Below are positions 2,125-31,000 of a stretch of DNA of 49,480 nt, in pieces. Position 1 is the stretch's first letter. The number at the start of each line of letters is the position of its first letter. The position numbers and the translations under genes were made by a program. The notes under the pieces are model-generated. The model searched no databases and was not told the DNA's origin. It saw only the letters and a list, made by a program, of their open reading frames with translations. This stretch comes from a virus (Duplodnaviria; Caudoviricetes): IMG/VR virus record IMGVR_UViG_3300030376_002587, positions 1 to 49,480 of that record, one strand, 5' to 3'.

Positions 2125-2318
2125 AATTAATAGATATAAGTTATAGAACTAATAATGCTGATGCCAAATGTTATGTCAGTAAAAATTTTAAAAATATGGA
2201 TTATACTATTCAAATGGATTGTTTAAGTGATGCAATTAGTGAACTTGAAGATATTGCACAAAATTTAAGAAAAGAATATATGGCAAAGCTAGAAAAGAAT
2301 GATAGAACAAACAGTTAA
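2121..2318 (+). CDS. Hypothetical protein
   Basis: ATGA overlap with the nuclease gene. Confidence 0.55.
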   Translation: MKLIDISYRTNNADAKCYVSKNFKNMDYTIQMDCLSDAISELEDIAQNLRKEYMAKLEKNDRTNS

Positions 2319-2559
2319 TGGAACAGAAGAGCATCTTGAAGATGGTGAAATAATAATTGAAGAAGGGGCATTTACTGGTTTTGAAGGTAAAACAATTAAC
2401 ATAACAGATAGTTCTGGTAATGGAAGTGATGTTGAAGCTGGTATACAATTTATTTATCACATGAGAGAACATATTATAGATATAGGAATAGCAACTGTTT
2501 ATGGATTAGTTGTATATGCTTTATTTTTATGGATAACAAAAACAATAAAGGGGTTTTAA
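2299..2559 (+). CDS. Hypothetical membrane protein (acidic N-terminus, C-terminal TM)
   Basis: IIDIGIATVYGLVVYALFLWI helix. Confidence 0.6.
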   Translation: MIEQTVNGTEEHLEDGEIIIEEGAFTGFEGKTINITDSSGNGSDVEAGIQFIYHMREHIIDIGIATVYGLVVYALFLWITKTIKGF

Positions 2560-2596
2560 GAGGGGGGTCTGCATGCGGGTGCCACCCTCCTCACCA
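2560..2596 (+). ncRNA. Putative tRNA-like minihelix ending in ACCA
   Basis: GAGGGGGGT 2560-68 pairs with ACCCTCCTC 2584-92 (one G:U), plus an inner GCA/TGC stem, followed by ACCA 2593-96. Confidence 0.45.
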
Positions 2597-2601
2597 GTTA
2601 T

Positions 2602-2683
2602 GAGGGGTAATTGTTTAATTTAAACTTAATAAACTTTATTAAATTATTTATTTGCTAATATAATCTGCAATTATCCCTCACCA
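2602..2683 (+). ncRNA. Putative 82-nt tRNA-like RNA ending in ACCA
   Basis: GAGGGGTAATTG 2602-13 pairs with CAATTATCCCTC 2668-79 (12 bp, one G:U), followed by ACCA. Internal AT-rich hairpins; no canonical T-loop. Confidence 0.45.
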
Positions 2684-2699
2684 AACAAAGGAGTAAAAT

Positions 2700-3110
2700 A
2701 TGTTTAGTTCTATCATAGGTCCAATAAGTTCTCTTGCTGGAACATGGTTACAAGGCAAAGTAGACAAAGCTAAAGCAGAAACCGATATAAAGGTAGCTAA
2801 AGCACAAGCAGAAGCAGAAGTATATCGTACCGAAGCAACATCTGAAATGCTTATGGAAAAAGAATTAACTTCACAAATGGGTGATAGTTTAAAGGATGAA
2901 TTTTGGACTTTTGTGTTTGGAGCAATACTTATCTGTTGTTTCTTGCCGTGGACACAGCCTTATGTAAAAGATGGTTTTGTGTTCCTAGACCAGAATTGTC
3001 CATCTTGGTTCTCTAACATGCTTTATATCGTGATTGGGAGTGCATTTGGAATGAGGTTTGGAAAACAAGGTCTGCAAATTTTAAAATCAAGAAATGCCAA
3101 AACTAAGTAA
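2700..3110 (+). CDS. Putative holin (GTA 3TM-holin-like)
   Basis: N-terminal amphipathic helix, coiled coil, S(L/W)KDEFW, two C-terminal TMs ending FGMR. SD AAGGAG. Confidence 0.6.
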   Translation: MFSSIIGPISSLAGTWLQGKVDKAKAETDIKVAKAQAEAEVYRTEATSEMLMEKELTSQMGDSLKDEFWTFVFGAILICCFLPWTQPYVKDGFVFLDQNCPSWFSNMLYIVIGSAFGMRFGKQGLQILKSRNAKTK

Positions 3111-9257: not shown

Positions 9258-9902
9258 ATGTCAAATTACAGTATTGAGCAATTATATGACTTTATAGCAC
9301 CAGAATATGAAAGTCTGCGAAATGAACCAATTAACTATGTAGAAGATGAAATTATATCCAATATGCTTTCAGTTCTAGGTGGTAAGAAAGTTCTTGATGT
9401 TGGATGTGGTACTGGCAATCTAATTACACTTGGTCAATATGAACCAGAACAATATCTTGGTATTGATATAAGTGCAAACATGATTAAAGAAGCAAAAAGA
9501 TTTTATCCAAATTATAATTTTAAAAAACATGATGCTAGAGAAAAGATAAAAGGTAAATATGATTTGATAGTTTCTATATTTGGGCAAATCAATTATTTTG
9601 GTATTGATGAATGGTTAAATATTATAAAAAGAAATCTTAGTAAGAATGGTAATTTTTATTCAATAATGTATAGCAATACATATAAACCAAATTATGTAAA
9701 TGGTCATGCAATACAATATTCCGTTGATGACATAAAGGGAAAACTAGAGCATCTTGGAATATTGCATCGCATTGTTGGTCTGTCTTTCTCGTCTGATAGT
9801 GGGAAAACATTTAGACAAGAGTTACAATTCCAACAGACCATCATGGAACTTAATCAAACAATCGGTTGTCGATATTGGGTAATTTTGGGGAAGAATGTTT
9901 AA
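9258..9902 (+). CDS. Class I SAM-dependent methyltransferase
   Basis: YDFIAPEY, VLDVGCGTG, GIDISANM, YDLIVS. No DPPY/NPPY or PC DNA-MTase motif. Confidence 0.85.
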   Translation: MSNYSIEQLYDFIAPEYESLRNEPINYVEDEIISNMLSVLGGKKVLDVGCGTGNLITLGQYEPEQYLGIDISANMIKEAKRFYPNYNFKKHDAREKIKGKYDLIVSIFGQINYFGIDEWLNIIKRNLSKNGNFYSIMYSNTYKPNYVNGHAIQYSVDDIKGKLEHLGILHRIVGLSFSSDSGKTFRQELQFQQTIMELNQTIGCRYWVILGKNV

Positions 9903-10338
9903 ATCTTTGTGGCACTCTCCCATTTCCAGTATCGTGATTATAAGAATGTTCCAATGCCTCAGTTAGATAATTCATATCTAAACCGAAGTCCTTGTATCCT
10001 TGTTTAATGACATTATAGTACATTTCCATAGGTGGATTTATATTATAACTATTCATTTTATAGGATAGCATTCTTTCATTACTTGGTGTTTTAAAATATA
10101 TCTTTCCATAGAGAGTTGGATAACCCTCGTATCTATCTAATGCTTCTTCACAATCATCAGTTATTTTCCAAATGCCTACAGGCACAGATGAATTAGCATC
10201 TTCTATAATATCAGCAACCCCTTTGAAAACAAGTTTCCATCCTTTTAAATTTAATGTTCCATAAGGTTTTGCTTTTGGACATCTAAGTTGCATTTGTTCA
10301 ATATTGAGATTGCTCCCATATCCTAAATAAAGTTTCAT
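9850..10338 (-). CDS. Gamma-glutamylcyclotransferase (GGCT/AIG2-like)
   Basis: YLGYGSNLN, RCPKA, ALDRYEGYP...Y. Confidence 0.88.
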   Translation of the reverse strand: MKLYLGYGSNLNIEQMQLRCPKAKPYGTLNLKGWKLVFKGVADIIEDANSSVPVGIWKITDDCEEALDRYEGYPTLYGKIYFKTPSNERMLSYKMNSYNINPPMEMYYNVIKQGYKDFGLDMNYLTEALEHSYNHDTGNGRVPQRFKHSSPKLPNIDNRLFD

Positions 10339-11381
10339 ATTGTTGTCCTCCCTTCAAGAGTTGCAAAGTGATTGTGTCTATCTACAAGATAGGTTCTAGT
10401 TGGAGTATCTATCCCTGAGTAAAAATTCTCTGGTTCTTGGTTCTCCAAATTGAAAGTTGAATTATAAAAAAGTACAAAATCAGAATTTAAAACAAATTCT
10501 TCACTCTTTATGTATTGTCCATGAAAATAAAAATTAGTTAATTCTTCAGAAGTTTTTGTAAATTGTAATTCATTATTCTCATTCAAGAAATTCCATTTTT
10601 GTCCGCCAGAGTATTTAACATTCCATCCTTTTTTAGCAAATAACATTTTGATTTCCCCAAAAGAATTAGAAGTATTTTTTCTATGGGTTTTTCTAATGTC
10701 AGAAGTTCTGTCATTGTTAATAGTCTCATTTACAAATCCTACAAGAAATGAAAGCCAATTTAAAATCTTTGTGTGGTCCATTGTACCAGAGTGTTGTCTA
10801 AATTCTAAAGTTCCATATTTTCTCAAACTCTCAAGATTTATTTTCTTATATCTAGTCCTTAACAATGACCACATTCCTCTCAAACTTCCATCATAATTAT
10901 TGACTCTTCTTACATCATTTCTTGAAATTTCAAGGCAATACATATTATTGCTATCTCTTCTTGATATAGGCATAATCAAATCAATATCATTTTTATAGTC
11001 AAAATATCTTTGAAAAATCTTTTTGATTTGTTCTGTAGTCATTCCATCCCATTTAAGATGAATATGAAGTCCACAAGTTCTGTTAACTTCTATATTTTGC
11101 ATTCTGTTAAGTGATTGACAAATTCTAGTAATTTGGTCAAAAACATTTTCTTGATTTAAAATTGGTGATACAAGTTCTGCACCATTTGTTGAACCATCTC
11201 TCACAATTTTCCAATAAGGAGTTGTATTATGAGTATATCCAACATCATTAAATTCAATATCAGTAATTTCATTTCTTAAATGATTAAGAACATTTTGATT
11301 TGACTCTCTGACAGTTTCAATTTCAATTCCAATTGTCATTCCTAAATCTTCAATTATGTTTTTAATATTTAAATTTTCCAT
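10335..11381 (-). CDS. Putative amidoligase (Amidoligase_2, COOH-NH2 ligase)
   Basis: GIEIE, KIVRDGS, ELVSPIL, CGLHIH, RYKKIN, GTLEFRQHSGT. Confidence 0.88.
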   Translation of the reverse strand: MENLNIKNIIEDLGMTIGIEIETVRESNQNVLNHLRNEITDIEFNDVGYTHNTTPYWKIVRDGSTNGAELVSPILNQENVFDQITRICQSLNRMQNIEVNRTCGLHIHLKWDGMTTEQIKKIFQRYFDYKNDIDLIMPISRRDSNNMYCLEISRNDVRRVNNYDGSLRGMWSLLRTRYKKINLESLRKYGTLEFRQHSGTMDHTKILNWLSFLVGFVNETINNDRTSDIRKTHRKNTSNSFGEIKMLFAKKGWNVKYSGGQKWNFLNENNELQFTKTSEELTNFYFHGQYIKSEEFVLNSDFVLFYNSTFNLENQEPENFYSGIDTPTRTYLVDRHNHFATLEGRTTI

Positions 11382-19306: not shown

Positions 19307-19855
19307 ATGAATATAGAACTCAGAAGAGTTGAAGATTTAAACCCCTATGATAAAAATTCCAGAGTACATTCAGATGAACAGATTGACCAGATTGTAGACA
19401 GCATCAAAACATGGGGTTGGACAATTCCAATACTTATAGATGAAGAAAATACTGTAATTGCTGGTCATGCGAGGCTTTCTGCTGGACAAAAACTAGAATA
19501 TGGAGAAATACCATGCATTGTAGCAAAAGGATGGACTGAACAACAAAAAAAGGCTTATGTGATTGCTGACAATAAATTAGCAGAAAACTCAAATTGGGAT
19601 ATGGGTATATTTTATCAAGAGTTAAAAAGTCTTACAGAAGATGGATTTGATTTAAAACTTGTAGGTATAGATGAAAATTTTCAATTAGATTTTACCAATG
19701 ACTATACTCCATCAATTAATTTTGGAGAGGTTACTGAAGATGACATTTATAAAGCACAAGAAAATCAACAACAATTAGGCAATCAAGAAACTCATACACA
19801 AACTGTTTACTGTCCAAAATGTATGCATGAATTTGAAATATCTGGCAATAATTAA
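19307..19855 (+). CDS. ParB/Srx N-terminal domain protein
   Basis: LNPYDKNSRVH, GWTIPILIDE, IAGHARL, IADNKL; C-terminal CPKC. Confidence 0.9.
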   Translation: MNIELRRVEDLNPYDKNSRVHSDEQIDQIVDSIKTWGWTIPILIDEENTVIAGHARLSAGQKLEYGEIPCIVAKGWTEQQKKAYVIADNKLAENSNWDMGIFYQELKSLTEDGFDLKLVGIDENFQLDFTNDYTPSINFGEVTEDDIYKAQENQQQLGNQETHTQTVYCPKCMHEFEISGNN

Positions 19856-20436
19856 TGAAAATAATAATAGGTACAGTTCCATCAAGAATTGAGTATCATT
19901 CATATTTGAAAAAAAAATTACCAAATGCAATTTGGATTTTTGACCATAATCGTGACGGTGCCATGAGCACATACAAAAAAAAATTGGTAAAATTACAGAA
20001 TGAATGCGGTTTAATTTTAGAAGATGATGTTATATTTGCAGATAATTTTATGACAAAAATAGAGCATGAAATAAGTAAAAGACCAAATGATTTCATTAAT
20101 TTTTTTTCAATGAGAAAAGCAGACTTTGAAATAGGGAGTAGATATTATTCAGATTTTATTGGTAATCTTTGTGTTTATATACCAAAAAATCATTCTAATA
20201 AGATATTAGATTGGCATGAGCAATATTGGGTTCCAGCAAATTATGAAGGTAATATGTCAACATCAGCAACAGATTTGTTTTTAAGAAGTTATTTAAAAGC
20301 AAATAAAATAAAATGTTGGTTAGTTGTTCCAAATTTAGTAAATCATAGAGTTGGTAAGAGTGTTATTGACCCAAGAAGGTCATCAAAAAGATTAAGCAAA
20401 ACATTTATTGGACCAACAGATGAGGAAATAAAATGA
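19855..20436 (+). CDS. Glycosyltransferase-like protein (GT-A fold, GT25-like)
   Basis: LILEDDV, D-LFL, PNLVNHR...S motifs. Confidence 0.65.
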   Translation: MKIIIGTVPSRIEYHSYLKKKLPNAIWIFDHNRDGAMSTYKKKLVKLQNECGLILEDDVIFADNFMTKIEHEISKRPNDFINFFSMRKADFEIGSRYYSDFIGNLCVYIPKNHSNKILDWHEQYWVPANYEGNMSTSATDLFLRSYLKANKIKCWLVVPNLVNHRVGKSVIDPRRSSKRLSKTFIGPTDEEIK

Positions 20437-20960
20437 AATTTCAGAAGACTGATGAATTTAAAGAAAATATGTCAATAAATCCAGTTGTTGACCACAAATT
20501 TTTAGAATTGCCAGATAAATTTTGTAATCCGAGTAATGATGAACTTAATGCAGTAATGAAAAATAGAAACATAAAAACATGGGGCAGAGCAAAAGGACAC
20601 TTTCAAGGATTAGACCCACATTGGATTTGTCTTGCTTTTCATAAAAGAAGAGTTGCTCCATTACATACTGATTTTAATTATCCAAGATACTCACATCATT
20701 TCAAAATCAGAGTTGATGATGGCATTGAATGTGGAGGATTACCAGAAGATTATCCACAATTTCCACAAGGAGAAAAAAGAAAAACTTTAAAAATGAAAAG
20801 AGGATTATGGTATATTTTAGATACTCATTCCCCACATCAAGTATATACTACAAATGATACAGCAATATGGAATTTAGCAATTTCAATTGATAGTCATGAA
20901 CCATTAGAAATGCAAAAATGTTTAGATATGTGTTTTGATTATGCGAGGAAAGGTCTTTGA
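20433..20960 (+). CDS. Cupin/Fe(II)-2OG oxygenase-like protein
   Basis: PLHTD (HxD) and a distal LDTHSPHQV His in beta-rich sequence. Confidence 0.55.
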   Translation: MKFQKTDEFKENMSINPVVDHKFLELPDKFCNPSNDELNAVMKNRNIKTWGRAKGHFQGLDPHWICLAFHKRRVAPLHTDFNYPRYSHHFKIRVDDGIECGGLPEDYPQFPQGEKRKTLKMKRGLWYILDTHSPHQVYTTNDTAIWNLAISIDSHEPLEMQKCLDMCFDYARKGL

Positions 20961-22141
20961 GAATTTATGACGATAAAAATGTTTTTGAAAGTGCATTAGA
21001 TAGAATTAGGTACATATTTGATGAGTTTGAAAACATTATGGTTTGTACATCTGGTGGGAAAGATAGCACAGTTATATTTAATTTATGCAAAATTGTTGCT
21101 AAAGAAAAAAATAGATTGCCCTTAAAATTATTATTTCTTGACCAAGAAGCAGAATGGCAAACTGTCATTGATTATATGAGAATATTAATGAATGACAAAG
21201 ATGTTGAACCTTATTGGGTACAAGCACCAATTCTTCTAAAAAATGCTACATCAATTGGAGAACCTTTTCTCAAATGTTGGGAAGAGGGGAAAGAAGAACA
21301 GTGGTTAAGACCAAAAGAAGATATTGCAATAAAAGAAAATTCATTTGGTACTGAGAGGTTTCATCCATTATGGGCAAATATTTTAAGACATTATTTCCCA
21401 AATCAAAAAGCTTGTTACTTTGTTGGGATGAGAGCAGAGGAAAGTCCAGCAAGATTAACTGGATTAGGTAGTGGTAGAACTTACAAACATATTACATGGG
21501 GTGCAAAAAAACATAAAGACCAATACAATTTTTACCCATTATATGATTGGAGTACTCATGATGTCTGGAAAGCAATACATGAAAATAAATGGCATTATTG
21601 TAAAATATATGATGAATTTTATCGTAAAGGCATTCCATTGAGACAAATGAGAGTTTCAAACTTACACCATGAAACAGCAGTACACGCATTATTTTATTTG
21701 CAAGAGTTAGAAGGCGATACATGGGATAAATTAGTATTAAGACTCAAGGGAATAAATCAAACACGACACTTGTCAAAATCAGATATGTTTCAGATTAAAC
21801 AGTTACCAAAAATGTTCAATGATTGGATTGAGTATAGAAATCATTTAATAGACAATTTAACAGAATATGAAGAACACAAAGAAAAATTTAGAAAATATTT
21901 TGCACGAATGGATAAACAATTTGATGATATGAGACTCAAAGAAGATTTATACAAAAGACAATGCCAAACAGTATTAGCAAATGATATAGATTTTACAAAA
22001 ATTGAGACTTGGACATCAAATCCGTTTGTTATTAGATACATTGAATATAAAAGAGGAAAGAAAAAATATTTAAATCAACCAAGAAGTTTTGGAAAATACA
22101 TACCAGATGAGGCATATTATGGACACCAAGCATCCAATTAG
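20957..22141 (+). CDS. PAPS reductase-family/DUF3440 protein (IbrA/YbdN-like)
   Basis: PP-loop SGGKDS, FLDQEAE, GMRAEESPAR, YPLYDW, QMRVS. Confidence 0.88.
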   Translation: MRIYDDKNVFESALDRIRYIFDEFENIMVCTSGGKDSTVIFNLCKIVAKEKNRLPLKLLFLDQEAEWQTVIDYMRILMNDKDVEPYWVQAPILLKNATSIGEPFLKCWEEGKEEQWLRPKEDIAIKENSFGTERFHPLWANILRHYFPNQKACYFVGMRAEESPARLTGLGSGRTYKHITWGAKKHKDQYNFYPLYDWSTHDVWKAIHENKWHYCKIYDEFYRKGIPLRQMRVSNLHHETAVHALFYLQELEGDTWDKLVLRLKGINQTRHLSKSDMFQIKQLPKMFNDWIEYRNHLIDNLTEYEEHKEKFRKYFARMDKQFDDMRLKEDLYKRQCQTVLANDIDFTKIETWTSNPFVIRYIEYKRGKKKYLNQPRSFGKYIPDEAYYGHQASN

Positions 22142-22679
22142 CAATGTATTGTGGATAGATGTAGATAAGATACAAGCAAACGACTACAATCCAAATAAAG
22201 TTGCATCAACTGAATTAAGATTGCTCTATGTATCTATAAAAGAAGATGGATATACACAACCAATTGTAACTATCTATGATGAAGAAACAGATAAGTATAC
22301 TATCGTTGATGGATTTCACAGATATTTTGTAGGCAAAAATAATAAGGACATATTAGAAACTACAGATGGCAAATTACCTATTGTTGTATTACATAAAACA
22401 ATAAATGAAAGAATGGCATCTACAGTAAGACATAATCGTGCAAGAGGTTCACATAGTATAAAAGGAATGTCAAACATGGTTTTTGAGATGCTAGAAAATG
22501 GATGGGATGATGTTATGATATGCAACCATTTAGGAATGGAAGCAGATGAGATTGTAAGATTAAAACATATTACAGGGTTCTCTAAATTGTTTAAAGATAC
22601 AGAATATAGTAAATCATGGAGAACAAAGAACCAGATTTTATTGGAAAAAGATATGCTAGACAAAAGTGAGACAAATTGA
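22119..22679 (+). CDS. ParB-like protein (IbrB/YbdM-like)
   Basis: ANDYNPN, DGYTQPIV, IVDGFHRY, STVRHNRARG. Confidence 0.9.
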   Translation: MDTKHPISNVLWIDVDKIQANDYNPNKVASTELRLLYVSIKEDGYTQPIVTIYDEETDKYTIVDGFHRYFVGKNNKDILETTDGKLPIVVLHKTINERMASTVRHNRARGSHSIKGMSNMVFEMLENGWDDVMICNHLGMEADEIVRLKHITGFSKLFKDTEYSKSWRTKNQILLEKDMLDKSETN

Positions 22680-30914: not shown

Positions 30915-30921
30915 ATAGAGT

Positions 30922-30987
30922 TTGGTAAGGGGGGTTCGTTTTCCCACGGTAATATTAAAATCTTTTCATATTTACCCCCCTTATCAA
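30922..30987 (+). other. Structured intergenic RNA element (14-bp stem with branched loop)
   Basis: TTGGTAAGGGGGGT/ACCCCCCTTATCAA enclosing CGT[TTTCCC]ACG and AATAT/ATATT hairpins. Confidence 0.55.
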
Positions 30988-31000
30988 TTTAGGAGATATT

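Follow-up and report, generated by a model that had tools for sequence, protein, structure and literature searches.

Two tandem hairpins, each with the paired ends and 3' NCCA of a tRNA or tmRNA, lie directly upstream of a holin-like gene in a tailed phage in whose whole record ARAGORN finds no tRNA gene. What are these elements, and of what use are they to the phage? The initial annotation offered three answers: decoys for defence toxins that attack the CCA end of tRNAs, RNase P processing signals that time holin expression, or decayed tRNAs. In this report, we weigh these and other readings against the structure, relatives and placement of the hairpins.

The two hairpins in their genomic setting

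The stretch of DNA analysed here (the window) is the complete, 49.5-kb record of a tailed phage with HK97-type head genes, in which neither a tyrosine nor a serine integrase was found. The hairpins, hereafter the short and the long unit (Table 1), occupy a junction at the end of the late operon, downstream of lysozyme and nuclease genes. The product of the 86-aa gene before them has no family match in Pfam/PHROG profile searches; the TAA stop of this gene doubles as the leader of the short unit, placing A at position -1, where the long unit has U. The gene behind them had been called a holin. Its product has no Pfam or PHROG holin match, but its nearest Atlas cluster was automatically named “putative Holin” (0.96), and 19% of the members of another Atlas cluster have GTA_holin_3TM. 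To judge from these clusters the gene is likely a holin, and we refer to it as holin-like.

Table 1. Features of the junction between the late-operon genes and the holin-like gene (window coordinates)
Feature	Position	Strand	Evidence or remark
86-aa gene, hydrophobic C-terminal stretch	2299..2559	+	stop TAA abuts base 2560
Short unit, 37 nt	2560..2596	+	fold, covariation, model match
Spacer GTTAT	2597..2601	+	short unit's trailer and long unit's UAU leader
Long unit, 82 nt	2602..2683	+	fold, covariation, consensus fold
Loop motif UUUAAAC	2619..2625	+	common to 11/15 loop families
Shine-Dalgarno-like AGGAG	2689..2693	+	5 nt past the long unit's CCA
136-aa holin-like membrane protein gene	2700..3110	+	phrog_2524, unknown function

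Homologues of the holin-like protein are present in SAR116 and Roseobacter phages. On this ground, and because one relative carries an Acetobacter-like tRNA-Glu fragment, our guess is that the host of the window's phage is a marine alphaproteobacterium. The fragment (L021:3985-4042) is the 3' half of a tRNA-Glu, with anticodon and T arm, ~1.1 kb downstream of that locus's units; its best plasmid match is to Acetobacter (97.8%), and it is likely an attP remnant. Elsewhere in the window, two ParB-like genes, a PAPS-reductase/DUF3440 gene and a glycosyltransferase-like gene stand directly before the terminase gene (19307-22679), a cluster suggestive of DNA modification, and the minus strand holds an amidoligase and gamma-glutamyl cyclotransferase-like gene pair (9850-11381).

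Folding confirmed the two CCA-ended stems that had been read from the letters alone. The short unit is composed of a 9-bp stem (2560-2568/2584-2592), an internal loop and a 4-bp hairpin, followed by ACCA at 2593-2596 (z -2.5); our family model matches it with an E-value of 9e-13, the unit being part of that model's training set. The long unit has a closing stem of 12-13 bp (2602-2613/2668-2679) and ACCA at 2680-2683 (z -3.9), with an AU-rich loop of ~54 nt between the strands. Inner GTTT/AAAC and TTAAT/ATTAA arms had been described for this loop and did not hold up: the loop is open in the centroid fold, and the consensus of 12 close relatives contains no inner pair. A possible mini-frame of 7 codons (2600-2623) has its stop within the UUUAAAC motif of the loop. 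The CCA is unpaired in both units, and the whole ACCA is free in isolated folds.

Such elements are rare in DNA of this composition. Exact matches to CCTCACCA in the window are two only, namely the two units. NCCA-ended stems of at least 9 bp with at least 5 GC number three in the window versus three in total across 30 shuffled windows, none of which (0/30) has a tandem pair. The third stem of the window (30923-30982, minus strand) was rejected as a unit: it is antisense to late genes, starts with A, reaches only E 0.04-0.05 with the model, and pairs better on its plus strand. That plus strand (30919-30990) forms a 14-bp hairpin with a large loop (z -3.8) behind the capsid gene's downstream neighbour, and its minus strand chances to end in ACCA.

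A family of units that pair as RNA

Relatives were fetched via the holin-like protein alone, with no requirement for CCA. A usable start and enough upstream sequence were present in 174 of the 188 loci, which reduce to 118 distinct regions; at least 41 of the junctions upstream of the holin-like gene have units, and 77 were scored as without. When strong helices were sought in these regions blind to their tails, 45 of 49 proved to end in NCCA (A 35, G 9, C 1), that is, RCCA in 44 and CCCA in one. The remaining four fall in apparent upstream coding DNA, and seven weak helices have other tails. The leaders of the 45, to which the search was equally blind, are TAT (35), TAA (6), TAC (2), TTT (1) and CAT (1), with U at -1 in 37. 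A second scan, in which the stem alone was fixed, returned 26 distinct hairpins of at least 8 bp, with NCCA in the 10 family members and in 0 of the 16 unrelated ones.

Pattern scans that did require CCA were added to these, and the removal of 3 background matches from 80 candidates left 77 distinct units, all from marine phage contigs: 31 short (35-41 nt) and 46 long (57-105 nt). Two exceptions to the CCA, ACTA for ACCA in the short unit of L418 and a long stem in L435 that lacks CCA, have the look of decay. A looser scan for units starting with GG was discarded, its yield being mostly chance matches (0/88 with at least 8 bp). The pattern matched five times in 185,579 species genomes (Gemmatimonadota, Actinomycetota), in no case with the family's AT-rich leader, and blastn of two arrays against cultured phages gave AT-rich chance matches only. 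In HMO-2011 and CRP-901, the holin-like homologue overlaps the upstream gene and thus leaves no room for a unit. Two further kinds of hairpin were seen. L447:12830-12859 and L469 have related CCA-ended hairpins of 30 and 38 nt right after a terminator, which share a stem and differ in loop length; in L032, L076 and L096 (~1501-1545), GC-rich palindromes of 41-49 nt fit the search pattern on both strands and lie outside the family.

Both the ACCA and the pairing are kept in the relatives, with compensatory changes; their loss from homologous loci, which the initial annotation had named as a refutation, was thus not seen. Two-sided changes occur at 10 of 12 pairs among 29 long units, with 99% of cells paired (0/500 shuffles; 44-55% in slid controls), and at 8 of 13 pairs among 30 short units; these sets were selected for pairing and their members are interrelated, which makes the changes look more independent than they are. 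Counted symmetrically, G-U (27) far outnumbers A-C (2), an excess which argues that the sense-strand RNA is the paired form. On the strength of these sequence comparisons, we consider that the family is real and conserved.

What is fixed in the units is an A/U-rich leader mostly ending in UAU, the G1-C72 pair, the helix, a purine and the CCA; pairs 2-12, the base before the CCA and the loop vary. The helix comprises 12-13 bp in long units and 13-14 stacked pairs in short ones. G1-C72 is present in 77/77 units, but was demanded by the collecting script. The long loops sort into 15 families, mostly with 60-90% AU, and a UUUAA(A)Y motif lies near the 5' side of the loop in 11 of them, versus 1.7 expected; in the two groups that were folded, the loops have no consensus pairing. 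Short units have no invariant loop, and acceptor identity varies.

The base composition of the long loops invites the thought that they act as promoters of the gene behind them, with operator-like inverted repeats on either side. TGnTA is mildly enriched near the 3' side (p 0.03), and TTAA-N7-TTAA occurs in ~3 of the 15 loop families (p 0.005). However, sigma-70 scores do not exceed those of shuffled loops (14 families, mean p 0.54), the short units have no such loop, and the asymmetry of G-U over A-C is that of RNA pairing; a promoter is thus extremely improbable. RNase E-type motifs likewise show no excess over shuffles in the long loops.

Could the units instead be the remains of tRNA genes, or of attP sites? 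Besides an acceptor end like that of a tRNA, they show a faint U-rich resemblance to a T loop after pair 12 (4.7/7 matches versus 3.4). But a T loop of the form UUCRANY was not found after the 12-bp stack, C56 being present in 4 of 29 long units, and ARAGORN returned no tRNA or tmRNA from the window and 37 loci. Rfam returned no match on the window's units (E<=5) or in 12 relative loci (E<=1), and neither program gave a tRNA or tmRNA match on any unit. The initial description of the long unit as having no canonical T or anticodon loops is therefore sustained, and its suggestion of decayed tRNAs is not: pairing is maintained rather than decaying, the window has no integrase, the units have no T arm, and the genuine tRNA-Glu fragment of L021 stands separately, ~1.1 kb from that locus's units. 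Descent by decay is barely credible.

A free NCCA on a helix of 12-14 bp, headed by the ubiquitous G1-C72, would also suit minihelices that are aminoacylated and act as amino-acid donors for a non-ribosomal enzyme of phage or host. This, too, is a most improbable role. The base before the CCA toggles between A and G in otherwise identical units, pairs 2-6 vary, and G3-U70, the alanine identity mark, is present in only 2/77 units. Neither a single aminoacylation identity nor that of the toxin FaRel2 is kept across the 77.

Placement at gene junctions and the case for RNase P

The first unit of an array lies mostly 0-18 nt past a stop codon or directly after a terminator-like hairpin. A ribosome-binding site and a gene follow within 1-17 nt in 51/77 units, and another unit comes next in 21/77 (15 scored automatically and six more read from “other” rows), with up to three in a row (L373). 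Junctions were seen to contain no unit, short, long, short+long, long+long or short+long+long. The genes downstream include those for three holin-like families, a YqaJ exonuclease, head-associated proteins and small basic proteins; units are also found after capsid and single-strand-binding-like genes, or at operon ends. Those after capsid terminators or a single-strand-binding-like gene look like marks of points at which expression would step down.

When 32 records were searched with our own models of short and long units, most carriers proved to have a single site. The complete phage G009 has three: one behind the capsid terminator, one where the lysis operon ends close to the integrase, and one closing a leftward operon just ahead of a terminator. 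The lysis operon of G009 ends with a short+long array and a long unit precedes the terminator, neither with a gene directly behind; the array near the integrase has no tRNA match. Between this array and the integrase gene, repeated TTGGAACCAAA / TTTGGTTCCAA boxes (L446:4885-5150) mark a likely attachment region. In L355, two group I intron matches (RF00028), at 126-354 (91 bits) and 529-782 (65 bits), immediately precede the C-terminal portion of a major capsid gene.

Units have been gained, lost and swapped among relatives. In several relatives that have no unit (e.g. L147, L166), the stop codon upstream and the start of the holin-like gene overlap or almost meet, and filled junctions differ from empty ones by the unit plus a new ribosome-binding site, with short direct repeats flanking (8 loci, compared by eye). 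TTAT and TTAC are insertion motifs of IS200/IS605 elements, and such a motif stands immediately before the unit. Together with the presence-absence polymorphism, this could point to small DNA hairpins mobilised by a transposase of the IS200/IS605 (HUH) type, whose insertions fall 3' of TTAT/TTAC. The differences between filled and empty junctions are not precise insertions, however, as extra sequence is added; the sequence of the stem drifts while its pairing persists; and units were seen at gene junctions only, in the sense of the neighbouring genes. We therefore regard transposition as very improbable.

The nearness of ribosome-binding sites raises another possibility, namely a translational attenuator or minigene, in which a ribosome on a leader AUG (A-2, U-1, G+1) would open the stem and the freed, pyrimidine-rich 3' strand would cover the downstream ribosome-binding site. 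All 46 long units have AUG at -2 (some came from a pattern requiring it), and in 28/46 it opens a 7-codon frame, nearly always stopping in the UUUAA motif. When the 5' strand is blocked, this site is predicted to become less accessible (openness 0.69 to 0.32 in 10 short units, 0.67 to 0.44 in 39 long ones). Against this, the frame runs to 9-40 codons in 12/46 long units, including close relatives that differ only by a T-run, 11/31 short units have no AUG, a ribosome-binding motif precedes just 7/66 AUGs, and the conserved CCA is left unexplained. An attenuator is improbable.

The CCA and the other fixed features find a ready counterpart in RNase P. A review of RNase P specificity (PMC10731613) gives as determinants of the bacterial enzyme a 12-bp helix, RCCA and U(-1)/G(+1), with which PMC5499578 agrees; the former also describes hairpins without a T loop (4.5S, C4, CI, M3) as RNase P substrates, and pairing between leader and RCCA as an anti-determinant. 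The units present a G+1 paired to C, a helix of ~12 bp, a 3' RCCA and a leader with mostly U-1, as compared with published bacterial RNase P, which may not be of the host's type. U(-1) would be able to pair with the purine before the CCA, a point against cutting. We nevertheless consider it probable that the RNase P of the host cuts directly before G+1 of the units.

Whether cutting is the job for which the units were selected is a separate matter. We lean, with a little under even confidence, to the view that they are RNase P cut marks punctuating the phage's own messages. This reading is preferred because the universal features are those for cutting, the short units carry no fixed payload, and the his operon offers a precedent. 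In the window, the predicted cuts fall at 2559/2560 and 2601/2602; contigs from four RNA runs did not extend over 2555-2725 and so speak neither for nor against them. After the first, the upstream message would end at its own stop codon; the two together would free the 37-nt short unit; and the holin-like message would carry the 82-nt stem-loop at its 5' end, followed by a ribosome-binding site of its own. The stability and translation of this message would thereby be set apart from those of the upstream genes, to which overlapping or adjoining stop and start codons couple it in several unit-less relatives. Of the options first put forward for these stems, an RNase P signal fits best; the timing of the holin is too narrow a purpose, given that capsid and single-strand-binding genes also have units behind them and that some units stand at operon ends.

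Several observations sit uneasily with punctuation. One cut would be enough, yet those 21 units have another unit behind them; the G009 array and long unit lack a gene to set apart directly behind; the conserved UUUAA(A)Y motif is needless for a cut mark; 77 of the 118 related junctions do without any unit; and the CCA is defective in L418 and L435. A second reading, possible if somewhat doubtful, is that the units are released as stable, uncharged, CCA-ended small RNAs that act in trans, possibly as decoys. Their 5' ends would be made by RNase P and their 3' ends by RNase E and 3' exonucleases. The released RNAs could be bait for host enzymes that seize tRNA ends (toxSAS, MenT/AbiEii-type defence toxins), and the long AU-rich loops could bait U/A-specific ribonucleases or RNA-binding proteins. 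In favour of release are the arrays of two to three different units, every unit with its own leader and CCA; the units at operon ends, one standing before a terminator as a tRNA gene would; the diversity of loops, with 15 or more families exchanged on a common scaffold between phages with the same flanking genes; and the sufficiency of two RNase P cuts to free the window's 37-nt unit.

Most last units, however, lie a few bases from a ribosome-binding site, and a catalytic toxin would presumably consume a substrate-like bait. Other toxSAS enzymes differ from FaRel2 in specificity. FaRel2 itself modifies synthetic minihelices, a further point for release, and requires G1-C72, C2-G71, G4-C69 and Pu5-Py68 (PMC11559606). 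G4-C69 is present in 56/77 units and C2-G71 in 0/77, which tells against the toxin decoy first envisaged in so far as FaRel2, the sole published determinant set compared, is concerned. The fullest form of the idea, that marine phages carry exchangeable, anticodon-less “tRNA-top” small RNAs in arrays resembling those of tRNA genes, matured by the tRNA machinery of the host and serving as decoys for defences or stress enzymes directed at tRNA ends, with the interchangeable AU-rich loops as a second bait, seems unlikely to us. Punctuation and small-RNA release are compatible and not mutually exclusive.

Comparison with known systems

To our knowledge, very few RNase P substrates have been described from phages. 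The present family would add RNase P hairpin substrates that are unusual as swappable, arrayed cassettes in phage records in which no tRNA genes were found. It has no Rfam family, and no description of it was met in the literature searched (mostly openly available texts); it may be an unnamed entry among the 10,006 viral candidate RNAs of PMC10690425, the supplements of which were searched in part. The family is at hand as a whole: it comprises arrays, dozens of natural variants, and filled junctions with empty counterparts to match. Released RNAs, if that is what its members are, would constitute a new RNA-based counter-defence.

Among phage RNAs, C4 and CI are the closest in design: an extended stem replaces the T loop, and G+1, U-1 and the 3' RCCA are shared. 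C4 and CI RNAs are ~77-79 nt long, and most long units, at 76-105 nt, are near this size. In contrast to C4 and CI, the units have no Rfam match and occur as swappable arrays at many junctions, in phages with and without an integrase. A search for antisense targets in the phages' own genomes (6 units, 3 genomes) gave no match beyond chance, the longest exact complements of 9-13 nt being equalled by 5-59 of 60 shuffles.

The units also resemble synthetic acceptor/T-stem minihelices, which have a stack of 12-14 bp with NCCA and are substrates of RNase P (PMC5499578) and FaRel2 (PMC11559606). They differ in being natural and genome-encoded, with no T-loop consensus and no fixed amino-acid identity. 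A natural counterpart is the hairpin in hisCD mRNA, where an RNase P cut has been proposed to stabilise part of a polycistronic message (PMC10731613). Both are hairpins inside polycistronic messages with a proposed RNase P cut; the his site fits the consensus partly, whereas the units fit it well, encode CCA, and come and go as cassettes.

Finally, the t-elements of plant mitochondria and the RNase III hairpins of phage T7 are likewise structured marks by which a host enzyme makes mRNA ends. T-elements keep cloverleaf features and are not known to encode CCA, and the junction hairpins of T7 are RNase III sites with no known CCA; the units, in contrast, encode CCA and have no cloverleaf. If the units are indeed cut marks, RNase P would have a role in punctuating the messages of these phages comparable to that of RNase III in T7, and might contribute to setting lysis-gene expression in abundant phages of the ocean.
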